DNA from: Balanoglossus misakiensis
Taxonomy: Eukaryota > Animalia > Hemichordata
Reading direction: 5' to 3'
NCBI GenBank assembly: GCA_040954595.2
Contig: CM082587.2
Location: 1,765,000-1,828,999 of the forward strand
Length of the DNA stretch: 64,000 nt
The notes below the pieces were generated by a model. It searched no databases. It was not told the origin of the DNA and saw only the letters and a program-made list of their open reading frames with translations. This document shows, piece by piece, positions 1 to 44,856 of the stretch (the stretch's first letter is position 1; every line of letters begins with the position of its first letter). The translations under genes and the position numbers were made by a program.

Positions 1-733
1 GTCTGTACACGTTGCAATGCACGTAATCACCTGGGTGGTTATTTTATTGTGCAAATTTCTTATTAAGGTATTTACATTAATGCCTCCGGACGTGTGTGTG
101 TGTATCTATATATCTCTGTATCTATGTATGTATCAGCGTATGTATTTACCCATGAGTGTGTGTACATTATAAGCCCTACAATATACATTGAAGTTCTTCA
201 TTGAACGACTGGAAAAAAAACTTTGAAATCTTTAACCATGATAATCACGACTTACCGGCGATGTTCAATACAACATTTTGTGCAATTATTTTTATTAAGG
301 AAGTGATTTAAGTTCTGACTGGTAGGATATTGCCGTGATTTTCCTCTGAAATGTTTACAAGAATTTTTCCTGCTTCGGCCAATCTGTAAGACTACCCGCT
401 CGTCCTCTGCTGATATCACAGGAATATAGAGGGCGTATGTATACAGTTACAAACGTATGGAAATGGACTCCTTAGCCAGATATTGGATTGCTGATTTTAA
501 AAATATATAGGGAAATCCCCGTCTCATCAACGCTTAACTGGTGATGTCATAGCCCCGGGGTCACATAGTTCATACTGGTGGTTGTTATCACAGTTGGCGT
601 TCATTCATACACTGATAGCCACCGCAACGGTCCAAAGAGCAAGTTTCCGCCGACTGGGCATTAAACAAACCACGCGCAACGCACAGTCACTTTATTTTTT
701 AACGGGTTCATCTCAAGGCAAGGCGTCCGCGGA

Positions 734-3700
734 ATGGCAACCAAACGACTCGGTGAGGTTTTCGGCAAACAGGCTCTCAGCAGCCACTTACACTGCGACT
801 ATGTCGCTGACGTGCGCTGCGTCTCCGTCGATGGAAATACAGACTGGGCTGAGTTGGAGAAGGAAAACCCCTGGCTGGGAAGCGAAGTGAGTAGCCTTGT
901 TTTCTAACAATTCATTCAGCTGTGTATTTGTGGAAATTTTGACATTTTTCTTTTGCTCTTGTATATCTTCAGGTTGGTTTTACAGATAAATTCACAGTCA
1001 GACAAATAAGTTAATACATACATACAATGCACATGCACACATTCAGTAGTATGATAGACTGATCCGGGTCAGGCCTGGTTCCGGATGTTAAAACCCAAAC
1101 CAACAAAATCAGTGCCAGGATATAAAGGTCACATAGTGTCACGAAAGTAGCCTATTGGAATTACTGCTCATTTATACAAGGAATCTTGATTGACATACAG
1201 AGTGGAAATTTATTTTAATAACTTCGACAGAAGCATTTCCCGTGTCATTTTTTTTAGAATCTGGTTGTGAAACCGGATCAACTCATCAAGAGACGAAGCA
1301 AACATGGACTGGTTCATCTCAACAAAGACTTGAAATCCGTCAAAGAATGGATAGCCGACTACCAAAGCAAGGAAATCGAGGTCAGTGACAGTATGCAGTT
1401 TTACTTGTACTTTTTTAAATTACTGGAGTAGCTTTTCGTTTATGTAGAATTACATTGTGTAAATTTTGTTTTATTTTTCGGATATATTTGTCGGACACTT
1501 ATACTTATTATCCTTTCTGGAATGTTTAATCAATGTGGTTTAACTCGTATGAAAGTAAAATGCCTAATTAAACTAATGTTCTTGTGCAGGTGGACGGGGT
1601 CAAGGGTCGCGTACAAAAGTTCATAGTCGAACCGTATGTTCCGCACGACCAGAAAGATGAGTACTACGCCTGCGTGTACTCCACCAGAGAAAATGACGTC
1701 ATCATGTTCCACCACGAAGGAGGCGTGGATGTTGGAAACATTGACGAGAAGGTGAGTCAAGTGCGGTGTCTCTGAGAAGTCGACAGTTTGTGTGATTAAT
1801 ATACATGATATTAGTTTTCTAACATACTGTGCAGGAATTTTACTAAGTGACCCAGTCAGGCAAGAGCAAGCGAAAATGAATGCTCACAAGTGAGCGAATA
1901 CACCCCGAAGAGAAGTCCAATGAATATATGGACTGACATGGCCCCAGCTTATTGGCTGACCCGATTTTGTTTCAGGCGAATAAATTAGCTGTCAGCATAG
2001 ACGGTGATGTGAGCAAAGAGGAGATCAAGAAAGAACTGGTGAAAGGGGTTCCGCCGGAGAAAGAAGAGTAAGTCGAACAATCTTTCATTTTGGATGCAGT
2101 TGAGTTATTTTTCGGGAGAGCAGTGATACAGGGAAACGTCATTCGAAAAAATCGTGCTTTCCCGATGACAGATAATATGGTAATATCTCCCATGCAACAG
2201 GTGTTGGTCTTCGCGCAAGGAAGAAATTCTTTTGTTGTTTGTGGTCCAAGAAGACAAAAGGCATCGATTTCTCTGACACGAGTATACGTTTACCGGAGTC
2301 ACGTTTCTGTGCATTTCACTTGCCAAAATACAAAAAAGTAATAGCCCAACCTACGCGTAAACTATGTATTTTTTTACAACATAAAACTGGACAGCGATTA
2401 AAGCAACATCGATGTAATATCTTTTCCTGCAGAATGCTCGCTGATTTCCTGGATAGCCTCTTCAAAGTTTTCCGGGCGCAGTGCCTGACCTACGTGGAGT
2501 TGAACCCGCTGGGTAAGTCCGTCTATTAGTTGAGGCGCTCACACGCGCCTCCCTAAAATTAACCATTCCATGCATTGGGTAGTATGTTATCGCTTATGTT
2601 CGGCCAAATCACACATGACAAGTCACAGGCAGATAATGATGCATAAAATATATTCTCGTTCGTCTCTCACAGTGGTCACAGATAAAATCTATCTGGTCGA
2701 CGTGGCTGCTATGATGGACGTCCTTGCATTTTCATCAAAGCTTCAGGCGGTCGGCAAATCCATCGAGAAGACCAGGGTGAATTTCACCACACCATTTGGA
2801 CGTGAGCTGCTGCCTGAGGTAAATGAATTAAATTGCAAAGATGTGGTTATTCCTTACTTACCATTGGTTAAGTTCTATAATATCTACGTATTAATCCTAT
2901 TTATAATTGGTAAAAAATCAAAGATTAAATGCACGATAATTTTGTTCACAATTATAGGAAGTTCGAGTAGCCAAGCTAGATCAACAGGGACCCGGTGAAT
3001 TCAAACTGACGGTCCTGAATCCCAAAGGACGTGTTTGGATGATGGCCGGTGGTGGCGCTTCCTCCTTGTTTTTGTGGTGAGTCAAACCACAGTCACTCCA
3101 CACTGTGGTCAAACCAAATTATTCATCGCTCAAGAATCTTCAGATCGGAGATGATAGTACGGAATTGTAAGAATTTGTTTCAATCATTTATGCCCTCTGT
3201 GATTTGTTTCATTTACACAGTGATGCGGTGTGTGATGTTCTTGGTGCGGACCAGTTGGCCAATTATGGTCAGTTTTCCGGCAAAGCTGTCGGTGGAGAAC
3301 GATCGGAGTTTGCGCAGATAATAATCGACTTGATGACCAGGGAAAAAGTTGACGGAGGCAAACTGTTCTATGTTGCCTCGACCGTTGGTCCCGTTGGTAG
3401 CGGCAAGGGAAGTTCGGATGTTTTCGTGGTATGTAAATAAAGTCTAGCAAGCGTTTATATTACTCTTTAGTCGCTTATAGTCGCAGATATCCGCTAAACG
3501 ACATCTGAAAAAGGTCGAGCAACTGATCAACCAAATGAATTTTCTTGCAGGCAGTGGTAGACGTCTTGAAGGCAAACAAGGACAAATTGAAAGAGTACAA
3601 CATAACCATAGCTGTACAACAAGGCGTTGTCTCTAAGGATACAGGCAGAAAAGAGTCTTTACAAAAATTAGGTAAGCAAACGCCAAAATGTTCAGTGCAC

Positions 3701-6595
3701 TAACGATGTCTACCTATCAATATATGACCGATATCCTTTTCCTGTTACCGTTTTCCAGAAAACTTTCTAGGAATTCCAGTACACGCTTATGGTCCAGACA
3801 AGAGTTGCCAAGACATCTTGAGTGAAATATTTAAAATAGATCTTTCCACCGTCGCCAAAAAGACAAATGCCGTGAGTAAACCCTCGATTTTCAACTACCA
3901 ACATCATGTTGAATTTGACGAAATTACAAAGATTTCTATTCCTATCCTTTTATCTATTTTACCAAACATTTCATCTGTTACTTACTACAGAATGTCGAAA
4001 ACGGTGACGATGATTTTGACTATCTGACTTTGGCTGAGAAGAACTTTAAACCAGAACAAACACCCTTCACCAGTAACACTAAGGTAAGCTGTCGTTTTGA
4101 TCGTGTAGATATCGATCTGAACCTCACGATTGGCTTTTGTAATAATGTCATGTACCACTTGCATTCATTTGTGTAGGCACTATTTGCTGGAATTCCACGA
4201 CCCGTTGTACAGGACACCCTCGACGTCGATTTCATTGGATCAAGAACAACGCCATCAGTGGCAGCGTGGATACAACCTGACAGGTGACAAATTTTGGTTG
4301 GTTTGAAATCGGGAAAACATAAGCCAAAATATATATAACGTCATTCCAGAGGATTATATATGTTACCGGTGTTCCTTTGTCTTCTCTAAGTACTTATCTT
4401 TTTTTTTTCTTTTTAAACAGTGAAGAGACTGAGGCCAAATTCAGATGGGGTGATGGAGTCATTTCAATACCAGGTTAGTTGATTATCTTATCAGTAGAAA
4501 GACACGTCAGAAAATACTCTATATATCTCTGTTCGACGTCATCATAATGTTCTCGTCAGACACAACCGTAGAAATTGATCTCTTGTGTCAAAAACAGTCC
4601 TGATTGAACCACATTTTGAAACCATCGTTATGGGTCACGTGACTGCGGGTGTACGTTACTTTTGATTGACCAAATATTCGGTTTTTATTTCAGTTTACAA
4701 GAGGATTGACGAGGCGTCTGAAAATCACAGCGACGCTGATGTCCTGGTTTTGTTTGCACCGCCGCCATTGGCCTTCAAAGCCTCCATGTTTGCCCTCAAA
4801 CAACCAAAGGTAAATTAGCATATATTCTTGGCCAGTATGTATGTATGTATGGTGCAGCTTCGTTTATGATCTATTATATTCATTTAATCCAGATTATCAC
4901 TTCTTCCAGATTAAGACTATCATTCTGAATGTCGGTGGCATGTCAGAACTACAGAGCCGTCAACTTCTGAATCTTGCAAAGAAGAAAAACGTGACAATCA
5001 TAGGACCGGGATCGGTGAGTTCCCTTCCAAAAGCAACGATCTAGATTTGTAATAACAGTCCTATAATTGGACATGAATCACTATTACTGAATTTGGAAAC
5101 TGGCATAATGTTGGTCACTGGTCCGGACAGGCAGGTTTCCATAAATGACCAATGGCTGGTTGAAGCATAAAACACGTGACCACTTCATCATGTTTCTCTC
5201 TTTTTTACATTTACCCAGATTGACTAAATTTAAACTGTCTGATCATTACTTTATTTTCAGCTGAAACACCCGATGCAGGTTGGAGGCATTAAACCCGGAT
5301 GTTTCCAGTTTGGAAGAATGGGTGGGAATGCGGATAACGTGTTGGCCTGCAAGCTGTATCGCCCAGGCAGTGTGGCGTTGGTATCCAGAACAGGTGGTTT
5401 GTCTAATATTGTAATTCACACCATCGCACAACACACTGATGGAATCTATGAAGCCATTGCCGTCGGCGGGGGGAGGTAAGCTTTGTCTGGTATTATTTTC
5501 GTCCGTCTTGCTTTCCTGTCCTGTTTTACAGATGTGTTGCTTATGTTTTAGTCAGGTACATGGACACAGAGCACACCAGTGATTATGACTGTCTGGTTCC
5601 TCTTCCTGGTACCCGAAAATACACCTTCCAATTCTGCCACATAACAGCATAATTCCACTCTGACGTTATCTTTGTGACCCCCTTTACAGCTACACCGGTA
5701 CATCCATGGTCGGACATGTTCTGGGATACCAAAACAACCCCGATGTCAAACTTATTGTTGTTCTAGGCGAGGTATGTTCTCAAATCTCTAAAGAATGACT
5801 TTAACGTCAAAGAGTACGATTCTAAAGATTTAATTCTATATTCCAGTATCAATTGAAGCGACCCTTTCAATGAAGGTATTCTATCCACACACAGGTCGGA
5901 ACGGCAGAAGAACATGATGTTGCTGTGGCAATAAAGAAGGGCCTGATAACAAAACCTGTGGTGGCGTACTGCGTTGGAACTTGCGAGTCTGCTTTCAAAC
6001 AACAGGTACTGGTCCTCAACTTTCTTTAACTGTGACCAATTTCTGGAACTCTCATTAACGAACCTTACAAACAACCTGAGTATTGAGAACGTGTAGTCGT
6101 CTATGATTTTATTTCGACAATAGATCAGGTAATTCTACAGTAAATGTTTGACTGGTTGTGTTTTTCTTCCTCATTTAGCCTGTTCAATTCGGCCATGGTG
6201 GCCTCACAACCGTCGGTGTAGCTGAAACGGCCACTGGTAAAAACAAAGTCTTCAAAAATGTCGGAGCCATTGTACCAGAGTGTTACGATGACATTGGGAA
6301 ATGTTTGAGGTATGTACGAGCACATCCCGCGGATAGATGATTAAAACTTGCAAAATACGACTGCACAAATAACGGAAATATGTGAGGCCAAAAGCGTGCA
6401 GAATATCATACACTAGTTTAGCAGAAACCCGCTCACAACATTCTATAATCAGCATACTCACAAAGCTGACTTTTACAGACTCGGTATTAAAATGTTTTCT
6501 CCCACAGTACCGTATATCAAGAATTGTTGAGTAAAGGTATTGTTGCACCGAAACCCGAGATCCAACCTCCAAGTCTCCCCGCAAAGGACAAATAA
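734..6595 (+). CDS. Divergent ATP-citrate lyase paralog: fused CCS-beta/CCS-alpha (acyl-CoA synthetase) module only, no C-terminal citryl-CoA lyase domain; ~799-805 aa, 20 exons
   Basis: Hand-spliced GT-AG exons: 734-886, 1258-1380, 1590-1751, 1976-2067, 2433-2512, 2673-2818, 2958-3076, 3221-3428, 3551-3671, 3759-3871, 3991-4083, 4177-4283, 4421-4473, 4694-4809, 4910-5014, 5261(or 5279)-5475, 5690-5771, 5895-6005, 6179-6309, 6508-6595. All phases are compatible. ACLY motifs: [78 protein letters not shown]. Ends ...[15 protein letters not shown]. Confidence 0.93.
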
Positions 6596-6984
6596 TTGAA
6601 CTGCACGTTCAACTGTAAGAAGAAACGCAGCTCTAGATTACAGCGCCATACTTTCTGAGGCGAGTTGTGTCAAGTATTTGGATTTGCAGAAACTTTCACG
6701 TCATGCGCACGTGTTTTGCAGTGCCTTCATAATTTGGATGACGAACCAGAAAATACTTTAGAAACAACTGAGGATTTTATCGGGATTTTATTTATAACAT
6801 GACAGAAAAATTAACTGTTGGGAGTGAACTGCTGTAGATAAGAGTCTTGTGTAGAATGCCAGCCCTTATATACAGAAGAGATACATTTATATTGTAATGT
6901 AAATTTTATACTTTTTCGCAGTCAATGTTTGCAGAAAAGCGTTGAGTTAAAATGTCTTATAGCGAATAGAATTATGTTGATATG

Positions 6985-7119
6985 GAATGAATGAATGAAT
7001 GAGTGAGTGAATGAACGAATGAATGAACGAATGAATGAATGAATGAATGAATGAATGAATGAATGAATGAATGAATGAATGAATGAATGAATGAAGTGAG
7101 TAGGTGAGTGAGTGAGTGA
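6985..7119. repeat. (TGAA)n microsatellite with GTGA variants
   Basis: Direct tandem GAAT/TGAA units visible; these produce the spurious FIHS-repeat ORF 6972-7292. Confidence 0.97.
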
Positions 7120-7919
7120 AATCTTATCTCAATCAAGTTTGTTACAATTATTTTGAATATTTCCATAGTTTTTATATCTTGTCGCATTTCTGCGCTGTGG
7201 ATACAAATGTTGGTAAACAAGTCGAAATTATTGCGATATACGTTTATAATAATAAATAAATAAATAAACCAGTGTCCCATAACCACTTGCACTTAGGAAT
7301 TTCGCGTTTGCTACTAGATTAATCTAAAGAGGGTACAAACTGCCGTTTCCATGATAAGACATCGAGAAGTCTACATGTATTCTCGATTATTTCACACCAC
7401 ATTGCGATATTTCTACTAAATGTAATCACAGACATTCCAATCAAAACCATAACTTACACCTAAGCACATTTAGCGACCCCCTTCAGAATCAAGAAGCTGG
7501 CCAGTTCCCTAATATAAGACGAATATCGTGTCATTGCGGAAGATAAAGAGCTAAACATTCATCTGTGCAATGGTACCGCGAAGGGAATCCTGTATGACTT
7601 CAAAACGAGGCGGGGAATCCCTCTGTCGTCACGCATTTCCGGTTCATATATTTGTAGAAAAAACGACTTTATTCCTCGAAATTTAGTGTCTCTTAGGGTC
7701 TGTCTGTGGTCGCATATTATTATTTTAATCGAATGTTCATCCAATTTCGGAATAAAATGTCTTGGGAGGAGGAATTTCACTAAAAGAAATGCATGTACAA
7801 AAACGTAAGAGTAAAGATACAGCAAACAAGCGAACGAGGAGTCTGTGTACGTACATGGCGTCCTGAGAGCTGTCGGTTTCTACTTCGTTGCTGTGAAAAT
7901 TCGTGTTTGTTAATCAACC

Positions 7920-10431
7920 ATGGGGTTTCCAGCTGCTCTAACGGAAGAAGAAGAAATACTCAAGAGGAAGTATGCATTACTTCGGAAGAAGGTAATTCAA
8001 GGAGATAAATATTAGCATAATGATGTGTGGACTGTTGAGGATTTTGCCATCCTATGGCCCATTAAAGTCCACCTTTCATTCAGAGATTAACGTAATTGCA
8101 GCACATGTAATAGAGACTTTGACACCGTTAATGATACTACATACATCTAAGCTTGCACTCGTATCTTATTTTACAGAAGAAAGCATTGCAGCAAATGAAA
8201 CAGATAAAACGACAAGCTAGTACATCTACAGCATCGACACAGCAGAAGAGAAGTAAGTAAAGTAATTCACGATGGATTCTCCATATATGATATAATTTCA
8301 CAGTCTGTGAAATGACTCAGTTGGCATCTGAAGCTTTTGAAATGGCTTAATTGCTTAGCTGTGATGTAATGGCCATGGTTAGTGTGATGAGATAGACACC
8401 TTCTGTGGCAATTCCTAAGTTGGTCATGTTTTTCCTGTTGTCTGTTTCAGTGGCTGTAGAAGAAGTCAGTGAAGGAGCTAAGGTAGCTGCCAAGGAAGTG
8501 GCCAAAAAATTAGTCGCTACTGGCGTAAGTGTTTCAGTGGTTGGGTGCCATTTTCTATCTTGTATTATGTACCTGTTGTCGTTATTGTTGAAACATTGAT
8601 CCAAAGCATGTTTGTCTCCCATAGGATAAGTTCAAGTTCGCATCTAGTCAATATATTTGGCCTTTACCATCTTTGTATGATGCCATCCTTGTTGCAGGCC
8701 ATTAAGTTAGATCCGGACAGCAAAAGCTCTGGTTTCAAGAGATCCAAGAATCTTGAGCACAAGCTGAAAGATCCTGAGAAATCCCACAACACACTAAGTT
8801 TCCAGCCATTCAATCCAAGCCTGCCGAGTTCAGAAGATGGTACTCCGTCACCCAATAAAACCGTCAAACCACTCTATGAGAGGTATATAATGTATAATTT
8901 GTCCTTTTGGTCACCACACAAATCACATTGTTTCAGCTCTGTTGTTTGTAGTAGTACAGATAATCCATGTTCATGTACATGGGTTGACAGTAGCATTGGC
9001 ACAAGTTTTTGCATTGAGTATACTGGAACCAGTGCGAAGCTTCTAGCGACATTTCCAAGTTACAAAGTGTTTACACTTATACAATCTCCTTTAGTATGAA
9101 ACAAGTGAACAATGTGTAATTTAAAATTATTCTTTTTTCAATTTTCAGTTTCGTGAGCAGTGGAACAAGTGGTTCCTTATCAAGAGAATCCAGTAAGTTT
9201 GTTCATTTCCTCCCTGTTAGCTGTCTGACAATCTCTCTGCCTCTCTCTTTCTCCCTCCCCTTCTGTCTCGTAGAGAATACATGAATGATTTCTTGTCGGG
9301 CACAACAAGCAGTTTCCTCAATCCTTTTACTTTCTTCAAATTTTAGGACCAGGTGGCCACTATGATGACAGACGAGAGCGCAAGAAAGGAAACACAGTAT
9401 ATGTTCATGGCCATGGCATCACAGAGCAGATATGTCAACAAGCTTTCAGCAGAATTGGTAGAATTGTCAATATAAATATGGAACGAGACAGAAGGCAAGT
9501 TTCTCCATGTTTCATGTATGATATGCTAGGAGGGAACACAGTTCAGTTTTTCAGCTGTAACCCGTGTATCTATAGCAAATTGTATGTTTCTATGTGAACA
9601 AAGAATTTCTGTTGAAGTACGTGCATTAGATTTGCCCAGCCATTTGAATTTTCTATACTCTTTTAAATATGGCATCATGACCCCTCTCATGTATGTCAAA
9701 AATAGACCACAAGCCATGCAAATTGTCATTTGCTTTTAAATATGCCAAGCCCCGTGTCTTTATTTATACTTTCACTCTTTGAAAGCCACCTGATGTTCTA
9801 TTTCTAAGTAAAGCTTTCCAGTAATAGTAGTGCATTCAGTTGTATTTTTAGGTGTAGTGTTCAATCACTCAGAATAGAAGTAAAGTACTGTGTATGTCGA
9901 AGAGATGGATTTAAAAAAATAAAATCCAGAATTTAGCCAAGCCTTTTTTAGATCCTCTAGCCCCCTACATGTGCACATTGGTAACAAAAAAGATGACAAG
10001 GAGTTTTTATCTTTATTCCAATAGTTGTGGGTTTGTTACCTTTGAGAAAATGGAGATGGCAGACAAAGCTATCGATGAAGTCAGTGGTACCCTCGTGGCA
10101 AGTGTCTTGTTGAAAGTGTCCATGGCAAGACGACAGCCTATGTTAGAAAGTGCCACAGATAACTCCCCATGGGGCAGTGTAGGTAGGTATTGTGACATCA
10201 GCTTTACATGTGGAATCATACTGTGAGAATTTGGATGGAAGCACTGGGATGTGTGTAGAAAGTCAGTGATGCCTAAATGAAGCCAACAGTTTCACCATGT
10301 GTATTCTCATATTCATACACACAGTGCATTTATTAAAAATATGGCTGTTTATCATTACAGCTGCCGGGATCACCAAAAATTCCCACAGAGAAAAACGAGA
10401 AATGGTCGTGTACGATGAAGATGCATTTTAA
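7920..10431 (+). CDS. NELFE: Negative elongation factor E (NELF-E), 8 coding exons
   Basis: N-terminus MGFPAALTEEEEILKRKYALLRKKKKALQ; GFKRSKNLE and FQPF motifs; RRM (KGNTVYVHG...CGFVTFEKMEMADKAI...VSMARRQPML); C-terminus HREKREMVVYDEDAF*. Exons ~7920-7991, 8177-8252, 8451-8524, 8698-8882, 9149-9192, 9347-9494, 10025-10182, 10361-10431. Confidence 0.93.
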
Positions 10432-12953
10432 GTCAAATGGTTGTGCATTTTATTTGCCATTCCACAAGACAAGGTACTCTTCTGGGTCCTGTTACCAAAG
10501 CAACAACTCAACTAAATGTGAGACACAATCTCATAGTTGTTGACTGAATAATAGGGTGCTTTCAGTGAAGAACGCCCTCAGTGTTCACAAAGAGGCGCAA
10601 GTATGCTCTCACAGACTGCCTTTTTGTCGTTATGAGACTTGTGTGTGTCTCAAGGTTTGATAATCTGTATATAATGGTTTCACATCAGTGAATCTGCCTT
10701 ATCAAAATACCACACATGGTGTCGATAAACGACTACACTGGATGAAATGATGTCAAGTGTGGCCACCCCTATATACTGAAGGACAACACACAATATGAGT
10801 TATCATACGCTGTGGAAAAATATGGCAATAGTGCACGAGACTCAAACAAAATATGGTCTTCATAATTATTGTGCTGAGCAAAGTGCATTGAATGCTCATG
10901 GGTTAAGTGCCCTAGGCTTGAAAGAGTGTTCATTGTACCACGATCATGAAAACGAACAAGTCCAGGCAGTTTTTTTTCTCTTATGAAAATACTCGTTTAT
11001 TCCAAAATCACTTAGCTTTACACTGAGTAAAGGGTAATTGATGTACATCAAAATAAATAAACATGATGGTGATGATGATGTCCACATTCTATAATGCCAT
11101 TGGGAAAAGACATTGTTCCACTATCTATAATAACATCCAGATATGAAATTGTCTGTAGTGTATTAACCTCTATGTAAAAGTTGTGTTAAACAAGTGTGAA
11201 AGTACACACACTCCGTCATCCAAATTGAAAAATCTGAATTTTGATGATAGTCTGGAATATACATAATATAACACAGCTTTCAATGTTACAGACACAAGAA
11301 AAGTTAAAAGTAAAAATTTGAAATTTATTGTAATTATCTCCCAGGCTTAAAACTATATAACCCCCTCATCATATGCTGTAGTGAATTGATCCAGCTTTGA
11401 AATGCCATGAACTGGATGATACCATTGGTTATTTTAGGGGATGCGCTGTGAAAGTTTCCCAACAAGAGTTTGACAAAAATGAGATGTCTTTCTCGATTTT
11501 TCAAGTTTCCGTCTACTGTACAGTGGAGAGACTAAGATACTCAAAATGGTATATACAATGGGAAGAAATTGGTTCTTGTGATACTGGCAATGGCTAATGA
11601 AATATTGATAAGATTACACAACTGAATATCAGTCCAAGTTAACGTTTGTCTGGTTGCCAGTTTTTAGAAATGGATATCAACAAACCCATTCCACAGAGGA
11701 AATGCTGTGAAAATGAAAATGACAGCTTGGACTTACTCTTCCCATTAACACTCGTGGAAAAGCTGTGTAAATGATACAAGTGGCGTTCGAAGGGCGAAAA
11801 GGGAATTGGTGCGGACACTAGTACAATTTACATGTAATCCAAGGTATGTGACAGCGAATGTACAATGTTCAGATTTTATTTTTGGCTGTAGAGACACCTT
11901 TCCACCACCAGTGTTGTTCCATCTTTACCATTCAAACCAATGATTTGACTGAACTGTTATGGTGAAAGGGATGTTATTGCATCGTTGTGTCCTGTGTATT
12001 TACACCCAGTGGAGCAATCCTGATTGAGAGTCAGTCCAACTAGGGCACACTGCAGACTATGAATTTCATAGAGGGACTGAGCCGAGTCCATACGGCCCTT
12101 TTTAATAATAAATACATGATTGTATAATTTTGCTCTTCCAAAGCAGAATTAATAACAAATTTAATTTTTAGTCACTGTACATGTGAACAAATTCTTCTTG
12201 AGTTGTGTATTTGTACAGCGATCACATGCAAATTGGATAAAAAGCACCATATCTTGAAATCAGTCCAATTACAAATGTCATGTTCTCCATGATTCAGTCA
12301 CTTCTCAATGGTTCACATTCTATGGTAAAGTTAGACCTTTTGAAGTGTGAAAGAGTAATGTATGTCAACGGTGCCTAAGCAAATTCGAGTGGAAAAGTGA
12401 ACAAGACAGAAAATGATTGATGTGCTCAATTTGACCATTCAGAATACAGCACTTTAACAATTTGCATAGTAAGCATAACCAGGTGCCCATGCATGTTATG
12501 TGTCAATACATCAATATTTTTAACTTAATGCAGACATAAAACAGATTGTACTAGTAGATGAATAGCATGTAAAATTTAATTAACACAAATTTTGACAGTT
12601 CTTGAAATTGAGCTCTGCTGTATGCATGGCTACCACCATCCCACCCTAATTCTGAAATGGGGAATTCATTAACAATGGGAAGACTCAACTGTTTTGAAAG
12701 ACTGGGGGTGTCCGAGCCACTTGTGGGAGGGGTAAATACTATGTACATCAAATACAATCCAGGTACCCAATAATGAAAATATGTTAAAAAGAAAAAATTT
12801 GAAAGTGTGAGGAGTACACTTTTTCATTATTACACCTAACGTCAGCCTTTCCTGGGAGACATTAAAGTTAGAAAAGAAAAACACAGAAAATATGTTTGTT
12901 TTTGATAGTTGTCTTATTGTTGGGTTTGTACATGTTCGTATTACAGAGGCATG

Positions 12954-29909
<16,956 letters not shown>

Positions 29910-30144
29910 ATTTGCTATCGGGAGATCCCGGTGCACACACACTCCAACTTTTGTATGGTTTCACGATCGCCGATCGGATTGTTCGATCATGAAGCTCAAA
30001 TCGCCATCAAATTCTCAGAATGGTAAATTGTGTAAAATCCAGAGCTTTCCGGCAAAATAGCGATGTTATCCCCAAGTAAACTGGTCAGATATCGAGTGAC
30101 AACACTAGCAAACTCATCAAACCGTCAGTAGAAATTTTGATACT

Positions 30145-30569: not shown

Positions 30570-32324
30570 ATGTGTGGCAGAACAGCTTGGTAAGTACTAG
30601 TGCACCTGAAGTTGAAATATGATCATGACAGTGGTAAAACAAAACAAAAGTAAACATGCCCCGCCCACTTTATTACCAACTACGGTACGCAAATGAAACA
30701 ACACTAGTAAACTATCACTCCATAACATTATTTCAAGAACATGTCCTTTCTTCTTTTATCAGTACACTCAAACCAACAGATATCTGCAATGCGTGTGCAT
30801 ATAAAAACAAACAGGGGAAACGAACACGCCCCCAGTGGAGAGATGGAGGGGGAGGTGGTGGTACTGATGGCAGCTCAACTTCTGGAAAACAGTATCAGAC
30901 ATCATACAATGTGGGACCTCAATCATACACGTGAGTTATCTGCTAAAAAAGTTTGCACTCTAGTACGTCAAATAAAATGAAGAATGTACCAAGTTTGCAT
31001 ATTTTTCGTCCAACTATTTGAAGTTCATGATATCATGTTTGTTTTTGCCACCAGACCAATCATGGTTTCTAAGGCTACACTTGATGAAGGCAGCAAAGCT
31101 GTAGAAACTGAAGGGGAAGAGAGAGTGATCACTCCTATGAGATGGGGACTTGTTCCATCCTGGCTCAAAGGCAGCCCCAACAAGTTTAGTTACAGAACCA
31201 TCAATTGCAGAGATGACAGCCTCAAAGAGAAAGCTATCTTCAAAAGACCTCTGGAGAGAGGCAGAAGATGTGTAGTATTGGCTGATGGGTAAGGAAGTGT
31301 TGTATACTTTTCCCCACAACAGCAGAACTGAAAAGCCAACCAATTTTTCTGTCAGATAAAACCTGAACACTACTACAGTGTCTCATAGAAATCATGCGCT
31401 GAAGATGTTGTGTTTGTGGTACAAAATAAATACATGATCTCTTCATACCATTCCTCATTTTGCAGTTTCTATGAATGGAAGAAAACCAAGGATGGCAAGA
31501 AGCAACCCTACTTCATCTACGTTCCCCAGGACACAAATTGGTCGGAAGAGGCTCAGGAAGAGAAGAACTACGATGCGGATGGTAACTGGACTGGAAGACG
31601 AGTCTTGAAGATGGCTGGAATTTATGACATACTGAGACCAAAGAATGAGGGTGAGGAACCCCTGTACACTTACACCGTCATTACAGTGTCCGCATCACCT
31701 GAGTTGTCATGGTTACACGATCGCATGCCAGCCATATTGGAGAATGACGAGGCCATCCGCGACTGGTTAGATTCCGGCACCATCCCGGCCAACAAGGCAG
31801 TTGACCTCATCAAGCCAACAGGCAAAGTACAGTGGCATCCAGTGTCAATGGTTGTCAACAGTGTCCGGAACAAAGAACCAGAATGCATCGTGCCAGTTGA
31901 TTTAGAGTAAGTGTTACTTCAGCCATTATTTTGTGATGAGACGTCATGCATTGTATTTTGAAGTGATGCCACACCCATTGGTGAGGGTACAATGTTTCCA
32001 TCCTGTTAAAGTTGATCTAATGTACTTTCGTTAATGCAATACAGCAAGAAGTTAGATGCTGCAGTTTGCTAGCTATGATCTAACAATATTTTGTTTCACT
32101 TCTGCAGCAAGCCAAAACCAGAAAGTAAATTGATGTCAGCATGGCTGGCAAAAGGAAGCAAAAGTGCTCCCAAAGAAGAAAAGTCCAGCAAGACCAGTCC
32201 GAAGAAAAAGAAACCAACTCAGAACTTGCTGACTTCTTGGGTGAAAAGAGAAAGTCCAAGAAAACAAAAGATGAAAGAAGAGGCAGAGGGAAGTCCATCA
32301 CCAAAGAAGATCAAGACTTCTTGA
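30570..32324 (+). CDS. HMCES: Abasic site processing protein HMCES (SRAP domain), 5 coding exons
   Basis: MCGRTAC N-terminus with catalytic Cys2; MRWGLVPSW, INCR, RRCVVLADGFYEW, KQPYFI, LHDRMPAIL motifs; basic C-tail with QNLLTSWV PIP-like motif. Exons ~30570-30589, 30763-30930, 31054-31288, 31466-31906, 32108-32324. Confidence 0.96.
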
Positions 32325-40928: not shown

Positions 40929-43928
40929 TTACTGTGCCATTACTCGGACACATCCGGTATATTCATCCACTACGACCACCTTTGCAAATGGCTCGTCATC
41001 GCTGACACATATACCAAGGGGGTGTCGGACACCGTCCTGGTCACTGTCAACGCGACAGATAAAGTTCCCAATCATGTCGTACTTCATCACGCAGTGTCCA
41101 GTGTTGTTGCAGACGTACACGTAGCCGCGACTGTCAGTCGCTATGCCGGTGTGGAAATCCGTCTGACCCGGCTTCCTCTTGACGAAGTCGAAGTTGTACA
41201 GAAACTCGCCGCTCTCCGTGAAGACGCCGACGCGACTGTTGTTGCTGTCCGTAACCAAGACGTTGCCAGTTGTGTAGTCCACGGCCACGCACCACGGGTG
41301 GTTCAGCTGACCCTCTCCGCTACCTAGACTTCCAAAAGTAGCGACAGGTCGGCCGTCTAGTCGGAAAACCCGCACGCGATGAGAAGAGTGATCGACGACG
41401 TACACTTTACCGCTGGCGTGGTTAACGGCAACACCCCTCGGGTCGGTGAGGCGACCTTTTCCGAAACACCTGACTAATTTCCAGTTTTCATCGCACACCA
41501 GCACCTGTTTGTTTCCGCCATCCGTGATATAGCAACTACCGTCGCCGTGTGACACGGCCGCGAAAAGTGGTATGCACTGCTTCGCAAACCCAGAAACACG
41601 AACGACCCTCCGCTGCTCTCCTTCCATAGTGAACACCTGCAGTCTTTCATGTCTGGGATCGCACGCCAAAACTTCACCTTTCCTGGTCAACGCCACGCCT
41701 CGCCGAAGCCAACCCATATGTCCAACTCCGGCCTCCGTCTGTCCAAACTTATACAGCACTCCTTTGTGAGAGATGACGTTAATATAAACTGGAGACCTTT
41801 GCACTGGTTTTGAACCTACTGTCACCGAGAGTTCGTGTTCTCCTTCGGCTTCTCCATGACAACGTAAAACGAAGATGCGGTTCCCCGCTATACTATTGAC
41901 CTCAACCGGCCGAACGTCACCTTTCGGAGATGTCAGCTGCGCATGTATGTCAAGAAAAGATTCAAGCATTATACGCTCACTTCGCTTTATCAATGTGACG
42001 TGAATTTCCTCCCCGATTCGTGTAAACTGTGGAATGTCACGAAGTTCGTAATCCTCGCACCGATCGTCTTCTAAAGCAGTGGTCATGGCCACCGGGGTTT
42101 TTGTGGTCACAGGTGTACTTTCTGTTGCGTGGTTTGTTAAAGAATCCATTTCTGCATCACTGGTAACGTCGGTTGTTGCTATGATAGAAGCTGTGTCTTT
42201 TTCTATGGTTTCGGCATCGGGGTATAAGACTGTCTCGGCGGTCAGCGCTATGGCAACCTTTGGTGTGACAAGTTCTGTGGAAGGGACGGTTGTTTTAGAA
42301 TGTTTTATTGTCGAGTGATCAGACTCGACGACCGTTGTCATCTGACTTTCTGGCCTAGCGTGCACAACTGCAACAGAAGGCACCGGTTTGGTCGTATTCG
42401 TTGCGCTTGATTCTGCTTCACCGAAACATATTGTGGTAGACTTTATATTGAAAGACGCTTCTGTCTTGAACACAGTTTCGGTCGATGGCTCAGTTGTGTA
42501 AATATCATGTTCATTTGGTAAACTGTCCGCTAGTGTAAGTTTTGTTGTCGGAGATGTGTCGGAATCTGCAGAGGTTGTTTTCTCTGTAATGGAGTTCGAC
42601 ACTGGAATTGTTGCAACAGTCGATACTGTTAACTCTGGATCAGGAGGAAGCGTTTCTGTTTCGCAAGTTTTCGGTTCCGGTGGACCAGTTGCACAAAATG
42701 CTACCATCGCTGCTGTTTCTGCCGTTGGAAATTCGTGCTGATCATGCATAGAAACTTGGAAACCATTTTCTCTTCGATGGATCCTGCTAGATTCCTCTGT
42801 TTGTGACTTGACGGTGTGAATAACGCCCAGGCGCTCGGATTCGCAAAAGTTATCGTACGGTTTGAACTCCGGGTAGTCGTTCGTGATTGGCGAAGAGTTT
42901 GCTTCATCAGCCAAGAGTTTGTTGACCCTAAGAGTGAGCCCTCTACGGGCGGATATCACTTGTATTTTGTCCTCACTTCGAAGGAGTGTCTCCGTCGTCT
43001 CTTTCGCGTCTGCCAAATATCTTAGCGTACTTTCACATTCTTTTAAAAGAGCTTGATTGTTTACTTTCCGAGATCCAAAGACATCTTTCAGCTGTTCCAG
43101 TAATTGCTTGCTATTTTCCTCGATTTTTCGGGTGACATCTTGAATCGCACGTCTTTTATGTGCTTCAATCTTCCTCTCTTCTTCGCGATGGCAGTTCTCC
43201 AACGCAGTTGCCATATCTTGAACCTCGATCCGCCTGCGGCTGACTTCTTTTTCTCTTAACATGATTTTATCCATTTTTGCCGTTAGTTCTTTAGTGAAGT
43301 CGACTGCGGCAGTTTCCACGTCCACAGATTTGTGTTCAGGCTGTCTATGGTTACTCGTTGTGCATTCAAGGCAGACGGTAACATCGCAACTTTCACAGAA
43401 TAACGACAATTCGTTGTCTGAGTGTTTGGTGCAGTAAAACGGACGCTGTTCTGCACTAGTATAAGATCGCGGTTCAACCATATTTGTATGATTGTCCTCG
43501 ATAGCAACCAAAACATGCGACCTACTTGTAGAAGCGTTCCTGTGAATACAGGAGCAGGAATAGCATAATTGTACTGCGCAGTCCATACATTGATTTGTTA
43601 AGTTAATATCCTTACAAACGGTGCATCTCGGGATTGCTTCGGCGGACACACTTCCCTTCGCGGAGAGTCTTTCAGTTTCGCAGACAAGATTGGCCACCGG
43701 CTTTAACTTTTCGGCCGCTCCCATAAATTTCTGCGACGTTTGGTGTGATCGACGACACATGGGACAGTACAGTCCACCGCTTTTGTCCACAAGCGTGTCT
43801 ATACACCGTTCACAGAAACTGTGCAGACACGGCAAGATATTGGCGTCCTGGTACCACTCGAAACAAATCCCACACTCCAGAAAGTTGTCGTCAACCTCGT
43901 GTAAAAACTCAAACTCTGCCGCCGCCAT
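40929..43928 (-). CDS. Intronless TRIM-NHL E3 ligase (RING, B-box1, B-box2, coiled coil, T/S/E-rich insert, filamin, NHL repeats), TRIM2/3/71-like
   Basis: 999-aa single ORF. C3HC4 RING CGIC...CLHSFCERC...CPMC; B-boxes CTVC...CMDC...CYSC..H...H and CTKH...FCESC...CLEC...H; filamin GEHELSVTVGSKPVQRSP; NHL repeats DPRGVAV, FGSLGSGEGQLNHPWCVAVD, HPLGICV. Good Kozak context (atcATGG). Confidence 0.93.
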   Translation of the reverse strand: MAAAEFEFLHEVDDNFLECGICFEWYQDANILPCLHSFCERCIDTLVDKSGGLYCPMCRRSHQTSQKFMGAAEKLKPVANLVCETERLSAKGSVSAEAIPRCTVCKDINLTNQCMDCAVQLCYSCSCIHRNASTSRSHVLVAIEDNHTNMVEPRSYTSAEQRPFYCTKHSDNELSLFCESCDVTVCLECTTSNHRQPEHKSVDVETAAVDFTKELTAKMDKIMLREKEVSRRRIEVQDMATALENCHREEERKIEAHKRRAIQDVTRKIEENSKQLLEQLKDVFGSRKVNNQALLKECESTLRYLADAKETTETLLRSEDKIQVISARRGLTLRVNKLLADEANSSPITNDYPEFKPYDNFCESERLGVIHTVKSQTEESSRIHRRENGFQVSMHDQHEFPTAETAAMVAFCATGPPEPKTCETETLPPDPELTVSTVATIPVSNSITEKTTSADSDTSPTTKLTLADSLPNEHDIYTTEPSTETVFKTEASFNIKSTTICFGEAESSATNTTKPVPSVAVVHARPESQMTTVVESDHSTIKHSKTTVPSTELVTPKVAIALTAETVLYPDAETIEKDTASIIATTDVTSDAEMDSLTNHATESTPVTTKTPVAMTTALEDDRCEDYELRDIPQFTRIGEEIHVTLIKRSERIMLESFLDIHAQLTSPKGDVRPVEVNSIAGNRIFVLRCHGEAEGEHELSVTVGSKPVQRSPVYINVISHKGVLYKFGQTEAGVGHMGWLRRGVALTRKGEVLACDPRHERLQVFTMEGEQRRVVRVSGFAKQCIPLFAAVSHGDGSCYITDGGNKQVLVCDENWKLVRCFGKGRLTDPRGVAVNHASGKVYVVDHSSHRVRVFRLDGRPVATFGSLGSGEGQLNHPWCVAVDYTTGNVLVTDSNNSRVGVFTESGEFLYNFDFVKRKPGQTDFHTGIATDSRGYVYVCNNTGHCVMKYDMIGNFICRVDSDQDGVRHPLGICVSDDEPFAKVVVVDEYTGCVRVMAQ

Positions 43929-44856
43929 GATGGAATGCTACTTTTAAAACACACTGCACTATTGTATTCAGACGAGGGCACCCCCTGACATTGTTGAAAT
44001 TCTTTTATTGGTGTTCCCCCTTTCACTATTTTAATATGGATTAACTGTTTTGTTTTCATTCCCATACGATTGAGACTCTGAGATTGAGTCAATAAGACAT
44101 GCACGCCCTGTCAAGGTAGACATTTAAACAATACACAATTGGGAGAAAAAATAGGTGCCACTGGAACAGAGTAGTTGACCGGTGGTATTCAGGTCAAATC
44201 TAACTCTCTGCAGTCCTAAGTTTGACCTGTGTTTTTAGGGTTAACCATACAGGGAACAATAGTCAAATGTTGACCTATGGTTATTTGGGTCAATGAACGT
44301 TGTACGAAACTTAAAAGAAACTATAAAAGAAATAAAATAACTTATAAGAAACTTATGGAAATAGCGCATTGTTGGAAATGACGGTTTATTGGTTGGTCGA
44401 AATGTGCTACGGATTGTCTTCACTCCCGATTGTATCAAAGAAAAGTTCCAGGGTATTTTCACGGAATGCCACTGTGAAACTCAGGGTTACCTAGTTCAGT
44501 CCTTGACTGAAGATAATGGCAATGTACCGCGTCAAGACTGAACTGACTTGGTCTTGGATCGACGGACCAATATATCGGGATATACCGCCCTCTCTGTCGA
44601 CGTCCTTGTAATGAAATGATACAAAAAAAGAAAGGATATCCCCATTACCCATGATGCAACTTGATAGAAAATACAACTTCCTGGGTTGAAGACGAGAGCT
44701 GAACGCGAACGAATGGGTTCACTACACAGCGTGTGTTCACTCCGCCAAAACACGCGGATACCGTATAAACTGTGCGACGAACAGCTCACCTATCGTGACT
44801 AATTGATAAAGAGACTTCGTGGGAAACTGGTGGCCATCGAGGATAAAATGCTTTAA

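Follow-up and report, generated by a model that had tools for sequence, protein, structure and literature searches.

A stretch of 64,000 nucleotides from the acorn worm Balanoglossus misakiensis (contig CM082587.2, positions 1,765,000 to 1,828,999; the window) carries, at 734-6595 on the forward strand, a paralog of ACLY that lacks the citryl-CoA lyase (CCL) domain. A single open frame runs from the ATG at 734 to a TAA at 6593-6595 and encodes 805 amino acids in 20 coding exons, and all 19 introns, which are 87-371 nt long, are of the GT-AG type. The exons, all on the forward strand, are located at 734-886, 1258-1380, 1590-1751, 1976-2067, 2433-2512, 2673-2818, 2958-3076, 3221-3428, 3551-3671, 3759-3871, 3991-4083, 4177-4283, 4421-4473, 4694-4809, 4910-5014, 5261-5475, 5690-5771, 5895-6005, 6179-6309, and 6508-6595. 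This model was rebuilt from the window and agrees with the initial annotation of the DNA, made from the letters alone, in which 20 exons were spliced into one open frame of about 800 aa.

Evidence for splicing came from contigs of three runs of one sample (X1, X2, and X3), each labelled by guess as DNA. Among the X3 contigs (28 million letters), the rows listed included joints at introns 7-17 and 19, or 12 of the 19, and loose ends matching introns 6 and 18. No joint at a paralog intron was listed for X1 or X2. X3 was inferred to be RNA-derived because the next gene in the window also shows a spliced joint in this run. Two acceptors are available for exon 16, one at 5261, which gives a protein of 805 aa, and one at 5279, which gives 799 aa. 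The spliced X3 contigs use the acceptor at 5261, so the 805-aa protein is the supported form; the long form was the sole form seen in the contigs.

The runs also contained a second haplotype at positions 400-12000, with many differences from the window that were dense in the introns and the 3' untranslated region (UTR), including 16 in 315 nt of exon 20 plus 3' UTR. In the coding region of the paralog, 13 silent and 3 replacement differences were found among the 16 shown, which were drawn from 80 displayed rows out of longer tables of 345 and 174 rows, for a pN/pS of about 0.07 (binomial p 1e-6). These data support purifying selection on the gene, as had been supposed from its retained motifs. 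A recent pseudogene was ruled out by the same ratio.

The stop codon at 6593-6595 lies four codons past the equivalent of human P822 (ACLY residues are numbered here after a 1101-aa mammalian protein, P0057, in which the residues named by the cited papers are found at the same numbers), and the orthologs described below end 3-14 residues beyond that column. The positions first reported for this stop, four codons after the last proline, and for the histidine codon CAT at 6194-6196 were both correct. A 366-nt X3 contig, spliced from exon 19, continues unspliced through 6506-6823, past the TAA and into the 3' UTR; it differs from the window at 16 letters, all of them listed, and none falls in the TAA. 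Further X3 contig sequence covers 6794-6914, so that the 3' UTR can be drawn at 6596-6914 on the forward strand. No joint leaving exon 20 was listed among the X3 contig joints, and the 3'-end transcript check suggested in the initial annotation thus gave no splicing into CCL exons. The related claim that no splice donor precedes the stop held only in part: the last exon has six GT dinucleotides ahead of the stop and the one at 6537 is donor-like, although the spliced contig runs through all of this sequence unspliced. Candidate poly(A) signals (AATAAA, forward strand) are found at 7251 and 7259, and a GAAT microsatellite of 27.8 copies occupies 6985-7095, downstream of the gene. When the C-terminal 285 aa of five ACLYs were searched against the window with tblastn, no credible match to the CCL domain was found (best E 0.19 among the matches listed), in keeping with the earlier report of no downstream CCL exons. 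The truncation of this ACLY paralog is real. Misassembly and hidden CCL exons were ruled out by the stop-spanning spliced contig, the CCL-negative window, and the orthologs that end at the same column.

When exon 8 was used as the query, one protein was picked out among 54 candidates, the "ATP-citrate synthase-like" protein of Ptychodera flava, with isoforms of 797 and 804 aa. The 804-aa ortholog (P0002) is 78% identical to the window protein and has the same C-terminal end. The initial annotation had proposed looking for a full-length ACLY beside the truncated gene, and one was found in this nearest annotated relative: P. flava P0300 has 1096 aa, includes the CCL domain, and is 42% identical to the P. 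flava paralog. The corresponding Pfam domain (PF00285, CCL/CSH) was present in P0300 and absent from all five paralogs scanned.

Further CCL-less orthologs were found in echinoderms, using 50%-identity representatives (the best 150 of 3226 matches), a profile search, and name look-ups, which together do not amount to a census. Sea urchins were represented by Diadema antillarum (two records) and D. setosum (824 aa), starfish by Patiria miniata (819 and 820 aa), Asterias rubens and A. amurensis (827 aa), and Acanthaster planci (partial models of 769 and 520 aa), and sea cucumbers by Apostichopus japonicus (810 aa and a second, partial record) and Holothuria leucospilota (347 aa, partial). Seventeen of 380 proteins, the window model included, had a better score with a paralog profile than with an ACLY one, and all named members of this set were from hemichordates or echinoderms. 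The window gene is therefore not confined to a single species; it belongs to an ACLY-derived family found across hemichordates and echinoderms. No paralog from Saccoglossus, Glandiceps, Strongylocentrotus, brittle stars, crinoids, chordates, or protostomes was among the best 120, 150, and 120 matches, which is not proof of loss, and the profile search, having missed some of its own query members, is uninformative on absence. Several echinoderm species have two paralog records (P0126/P0157, P0279/P0378, P0123/P0272, and P0274/P0185); some pairs are near-identical and may be haplotypes, while the two Apostichopus records are clearly different and may be true duplicates.

The phylogeny with ACLY that had been recommended was carried out as quick IQ-TREE runs. 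The paralogs fell together on one side of a branch in both trees (8 rows, SH-aLRT 99; 6 rows, SH-aLRT 100), and within the group the hemichordates, the starfish, and the urchin plus sea cucumber sequences clustered as expected. Independent truncations in the two phyla were rejected as an explanation, since a tree joining the hemichordate paralogs to hemichordate ACLY had a p-AU of 0.0015. A tree in which the paralogs arose from ambulacrarian ACLY was allowed (p-AU 0.50), but this origin is not established and the long branches are a caveat.

Shared inserts provided support for a single family that does not depend on the trees. All nine full-length paralogs share a six-residue insert with an invariant His and Gln, a Pro inserted before the His loop, the changes E306Q and D690G, and an end within the same short interval past the P822 column. 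In the window protein the six-residue insert is aa 598-603 (5261-5278), at the start of exon 16 with an RNA-type joint at the boundary itself; its His600 (5267-5269) and Gln603 (5276-5278) are found in nine of nine paralogs and in none of 14 ACLYs. The inserted Pro734 (6179-6181) is the first codon of exon 19 (all on the forward strand). Since both inserts begin at exon starts, and since the Gln603 codon CAG is a spare acceptor whose use would restore an ACLY-length loop (the 799-aa form), it appears that the inserts may have arisen by acceptor sliding. As judged from these alignments and trees, the CCL-less family has one ancient origin common to acorn worms and echinoderms: an ACLY duplicate would have been cut after its ASH part before hemichordates and echinoderms split. 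Other inserts are lineage-specific. The two acorn-worm proteins alone carry nine extra residues behind the D222 equivalent, at aa 220-235 (exon 6, 2673-2818), and the echinoderm paralogs have instead a three-residue insert after KPG.

The ATP-binding and phosphoryl-transfer residues of ACLY are retained in this family. The ATP-grasp domain is encoded by exons 1-6 (734-2818, forward strand) and scored 261 bits with PF24948 in the P. flava ortholog. K56, R63, R64, E106, E116, E199, N201, and D213 of the window protein correspond to human K58, R65, R66, E108, E118, E201, N203, and D216 and are kept in all nine full-length paralogs. The same is true of E696 (5769-5771, forward strand), equivalent to ACLY E718 and to the Glu of the SCS alpha GE motif, of His739 (the CAT at 6194-6196, forward strand), equivalent to the phospho-histidine His760, and of ACLY G281, G282, S308, G664, and G665. 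The retention of ATP-grasp motifs, the LGE glutamate, and the phospho-histidine, noted from the window sequence, thus extends to the family. In all, 16 of 19 ATP and phosphoryl-transfer residues are identical in the nine paralogs, and the other three changes are conservative (G283A, R662K, and S663T). Only one of 17 citrate- and CoA-side residues is kept in all nine (Fisher p 2e-6 for the contrast, which these p-values describe), compared with 78 of 282 background ACLY-invariant columns (p 1e-6 against the 16 of 19); for polar residues only, the figures were 12 of 14 versus 22 of 89 (p 2e-5).

This pattern bears on whether the protein is catalytically dead, that is, a nucleotide-binding or structural protein such as a pseudoenzyme or a crystallin-like recruit. 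The loss of both substrate sites and of the lyase domain, together with the small share of ACLY-invariant columns (95 of 314) retained in all seven paralogs tested, is what might be expected of such a protein. Yet both phyla retain His760, E718, E201, and the Gly cradle without variation. Two degenerate nematode copies of ACLY, which served as controls, keep 7 and 9 of the 19 residues and have lost His760 and R66, as pseudoenzymes would. The signature of a pseudoenzyme, loss of the catalytic His and of ATP residues, was found in both nematode controls and in none of the nine paralogs, and we consider a dead protein improbable.

The citrate and CoA sides of the active site, by comparison, have been replaced, which had not been noticed in the initial annotation: the residues concerned are those of the citrate loop and of the CoA-contact motif, together with R379, E599, and D690. 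On the forward strand of the window, Q309 (3270-3272) stands for ACLY E306 in all nine full-length paralogs, aa 343-356 (3372-3413) replace the citrate-binding loop around N346-F347-T348, Q384-Q385 (3617-3622) stand for R378-R379, G571 (4934-4936) for the catalytic E599, and G668 (5471-5473) for D690. The E599 position is Gly in eight paralogs and Asp in one, and the D690 position is Gly in all nine. N346 and F347 are kept in none of the nine and T348 in two; R379 is absent from the hemichordate paralogs and alignment-dependent in those of echinoderms. S577 is replaced in all nine, and S574, R576, and G600 in seven of nine each. In non-paralog ACL proteins these positions are nearly constant, with E599 in 97 of 98, E306 in 98 of 100 with a residue there, D690 in 94 of 96, and N346 in 97 of 100. 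Thirteen columns hold new residues that are invariant in the family, including Q309, H600, Q603, L644, G668, and P734, and five of the 13 lie near the catalytic centre (p 0.015-0.047).

Despite these replacements, the ASH fold is predicted to be intact. An AlphaFold2 model of the P. flava ortholog, made with a 129-sequence alignment, had a pLDDT of 91.2 and a pTM of 0.92, and only residues 349-355, in the replaced citrate loop, fell under a pLDDT of 50. Foldseek matched this model to truncated human ACLY (3pff) with a TM score of 0.95 by target, and an Atlas model was in agreement (pTM 0.84). The fold of the NDP-forming acyl-CoA synthetase superfamily (ATP-grasp, two flavodoxin-like domains, and the CoA-domain fold) was recovered by Pfam, AlphaFold2, Foldseek, and Atlas. 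His600 would be placed near the CoA arm because its loop matches ACLY A624-T625 and SCS GPNC.

Membership in this superfamily makes an ADP-forming ligase the default expectation, and the paralog might be one that acts on another acid and binds CoA or a pantetheine carrier in a new way. The Pro-rich motif in place of S574-S577 resembles the SCS alpha motif at that position. In addition, P0140, an independent CCL-less module fused to carrier and nonribosomal peptide synthetase (NRPS) domains, keeps 18 of the 19 phosphoryl residues with a changed pocket. P0140 keeps E599, however, unlike the paralogs. E599 and D690 are kept by ACLY, by bacterial ACL, and, as equivalents, by four of four Chlorobiota SCS alpha chains, while the paralogs replace both. 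The Gly-rich CoA Rossmann motif of SCS, present in four of four of these chains, is absent from the six paralogs aligned, and neither it nor PGKG has been regained. The six-residue insert occupies the loop that matches SCS GPNC, and Pfam CoA_binding was listed for only one of the five paralogs scanned. With neither the ACLY route of CoA binding, which depends on CCL, nor the SCS Rossmann motifs, an acyl-CoA ligase, one of the options first proposed, is unlikely; a kinase or phosphotransferase, also on that list, fits best.

The same residues speak against a second proposal, in which the protein supplies the CCS half of a CCS/CCL pair that has split again, or docks on the ACLY tetramer as a regulator. 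It is true that the cut coincides with the CCS/CCL boundary, that full-length ACLY coexists in P. flava, and that a CCL-side ACLY peptide is recorded from A. japonicus (PMC6037860). But the citrate loop, R379 (in hemichordates), E599, D690, and the CoA contacts are replaced, and no CCL gene is present in the window, the rest of the genome not having been searched for a stand-alone one. Most of the ACLY stalk (810-838) is missing, and D824 and R829, which hold the tetramer according to PMC11365397, lie past the stop, so that a regulator built on the tetramer is poorly supported. Either role seems highly improbable.

The reading that we favour, at about even confidence and on the strength of the conserved residues, is that the paralog is a CoA-independent enzyme that would pass phosphate from ATP via His739 to an acceptor other than citrate. 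It follows from what is kept and what is missing: the needs of the ATP-to-His and His-to-acceptor steps are retained, and those of citrate recognition, thioester formation, and cleavage are not. The cited literature is compatible with such an enzyme. By itself, the ASH part of the human enzyme takes up ATP and citrate and makes citryl-phosphate but is unable to bind CoA (PMC10115795), so a CCL-less ASH part can run the phosphoryl steps; binding of the CoA adenosine and tetramer formation fall to the CSH domain, and E599 is catalytic (PMC10115795). The catalytic centre and stalk of ACLY are named in PMC11365397, and the His and two Glu residues of SCS are given in PMC10342173. PMC13670275 and PMC9504748 added little here on mechanism.

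In the proposed mechanism, Mg-ATP would bind the ATP-grasp domain and phosphorylate His739 with the help of E199 and E696. The phospho-His loop would then swing to the kept phosphate cradle (G284-G285, S311, and T641-G643), where the phosphate would be passed to a small acceptor in the rebuilt pocket, most plausibly another carboxylate. No CoA thioester would form; the product would be released or attacked by a nucleophile other than CoA, with the inserted His600 as a candidate helper.

The closest competitor to this phosphotransferase is a protein that autophosphorylates on His with no small-molecule acceptor, serving as a phospho-His store, in nucleoside-diphosphate exchange, as a slow ATPase, or as a phosphate donor to proteins. 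All that has been retained serves the ATP/His half-reaction, and ACLY and SCS exchange phosphate with NME1 through their catalytic His (PMC11277029). What was the citrate pocket has diverged between hemichordates and echinoderms, and the model shows little order in its loop; because the pocket differs between the two phyla such a role stays a live rival. A constrained second half-site is nevertheless suggested by the new invariant Q309, H600, Q603, and G668 by the acceptor and CoA-arm site, and between the two acorn worms identity in the former citrate domain (80.5%) is no lower than in the ATP-grasp domain (75.1%). We regard storage or exchange as possible but less probable than phosphate transfer to a small acceptor.

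Several observations weigh against the phosphotransferase that we prefer. The cradle residues would be equally expected if the protein merely stored phospho-His, and G67 and K68 of the ATP loop are variable among paralogs. The acceptor pocket differs by lineage, with Asp at N346 and an alignment-dependent Arg at 378/379 in echinoderms and neither in hemichordates, and therefore a single conserved carboxylate substrate is not evident. The enrichment of new invariant residues near the catalytic centre is only modest. The paralog branches are long, indicating faster evolution than in ACLY, and they do not settle where the family attaches inside ACLY. In the alignment behind the AlphaFold2 model, 119 of the 129 rows were non-paralogs, and 12 paralogs alone gave a poor model (pLDDT 57.9). 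The site lists were drawn up after the alignment had been seen, so the p-values for the residue contrast are no blind prediction. K58, R66, D216, G309, N346, T348, R379, F533, S574, R576, S577, A624, and T625 are included as what we take to be ATP, citrate, or CoA contacts. The residues named in the cited papers are only G281-283, S308, E599, E603, S663-G665, E118, R662, D690, R691, E718, H760, and F347.

To our knowledge, ACLY has been treated as an enzyme of one function, with its domains split only in bacteria, archaea, and plants. The ACLY/SCS scaffold may have been turned into a CoA-free kinase or ligase within an animal lineage, and the inserted His, gained by an acceptor shift, could do the work of the CoA thiol and of E599, whether as a base, a nucleophile, or a second phospho-His, in a pathway particular to echinoderms and acorn worms; this reading is tentative. 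The paralog points to an enzyme activity not yet known in standard model animals (Patiria, Asterias, Diadema, Apostichopus, and Ptychodera), is a candidate for the small set of animal phospho-histidine proteins, and offers naturally occurring variants that bear on the debate over how ASH and CSH share the work in ACLY. The database label "ATP-citrate synthase-like" is likely wrong. Full-text literature searches found no description of such an ACLY paralog; they did not cover most subscription journals and supplements, and the supplements of genome papers may list the gene.

The remainder of the window contains unrelated features. At 7453 a loose end is common to contigs from X1, X2, and X3, and X3 cover is low over 7453-7725; possibly an insertion carried by one allele, or a repeat, lies ahead of the next gene. 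That gene, putatively NELFE according to the initial annotation, occupies the forward strand from 7920 onward and has an X3 spliced joint at 8880-9147. Kinase-domain and HR1-repeat exons on the reverse strand (13583-14107 and 29392-30006) are consistent with a PKN-type kinase gene. An SRAP-domain exon, HMCES-like, is found at 31389-31907 (forward), and an intronless frame of 1002 codons at 40932-43937 (reverse) has the RING, B-box, and NHL domains of a TRIM-NHL-type gene. Rfam gave no match in the window.

Two other kinds of altered ACLY offer a comparison with the paralog family. The nematode controls, P0186 (Caenorhabditis auriculariae, 778 aa) and P0182 (Mesorhabditis spiculigera, 1114 aa), are likewise ACLY duplicates with replaced substrate sites, and P0186 also lacks CCL, but His760, R65/R66, and the cradle are lost, and by score they are not members of the paralog family. 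They are likely pseudoenzymes that stand apart from it. P0140 (2264 aa) resembles the paralogs in its CCL-less ASH part, its phosphoryl machinery, and its changed citrate loop; it differs in E599 and in its fused phosphopantetheine carrier, condensation, and adenylation domains, and it falls outside the family by profile score. P0140 is possibly a new kind of NRPS loading module, and P0201 has a changed citrate loop similar to that of P0140.

Among characterized systems, the N-terminal ASH/CCS part of animal ACLY (PDB 3pff, 6hxh, and 6uuw) is the most similar: the paralog is colinear with it over about 800 aa at 40-42% identity, is predicted to share its fold, and keeps the ATP-grasp residues, the cradle, E718, and H760. 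Unlike ACLY, the paralog has no CCL domain, has its stalk cut after P822, has replaced N346/F347/T348, E306, E599, and D690, and carries two inserts, of six residues and one residue. SCS and CCS (Hydrogenobacter, PDB 6hxq) have in common with it an ATP-grasp and phospho-His architecture without a lyase domain, and the GE and GH motifs of SCS align with those of the paralog. In contrast to SCS, the paralog is one chain derived from animal ACLY and is without the Gly-rich CoA Rossmann motif, PGKG, and the E599/D690 equivalents. It also scores far below the NCBIfam cut-offs (102 versus 353 bits); the residue-by-residue comparison was made with SCS alpha chains. On the features tested, the paralog belongs to neither ACLY, CCS, nor SCS.

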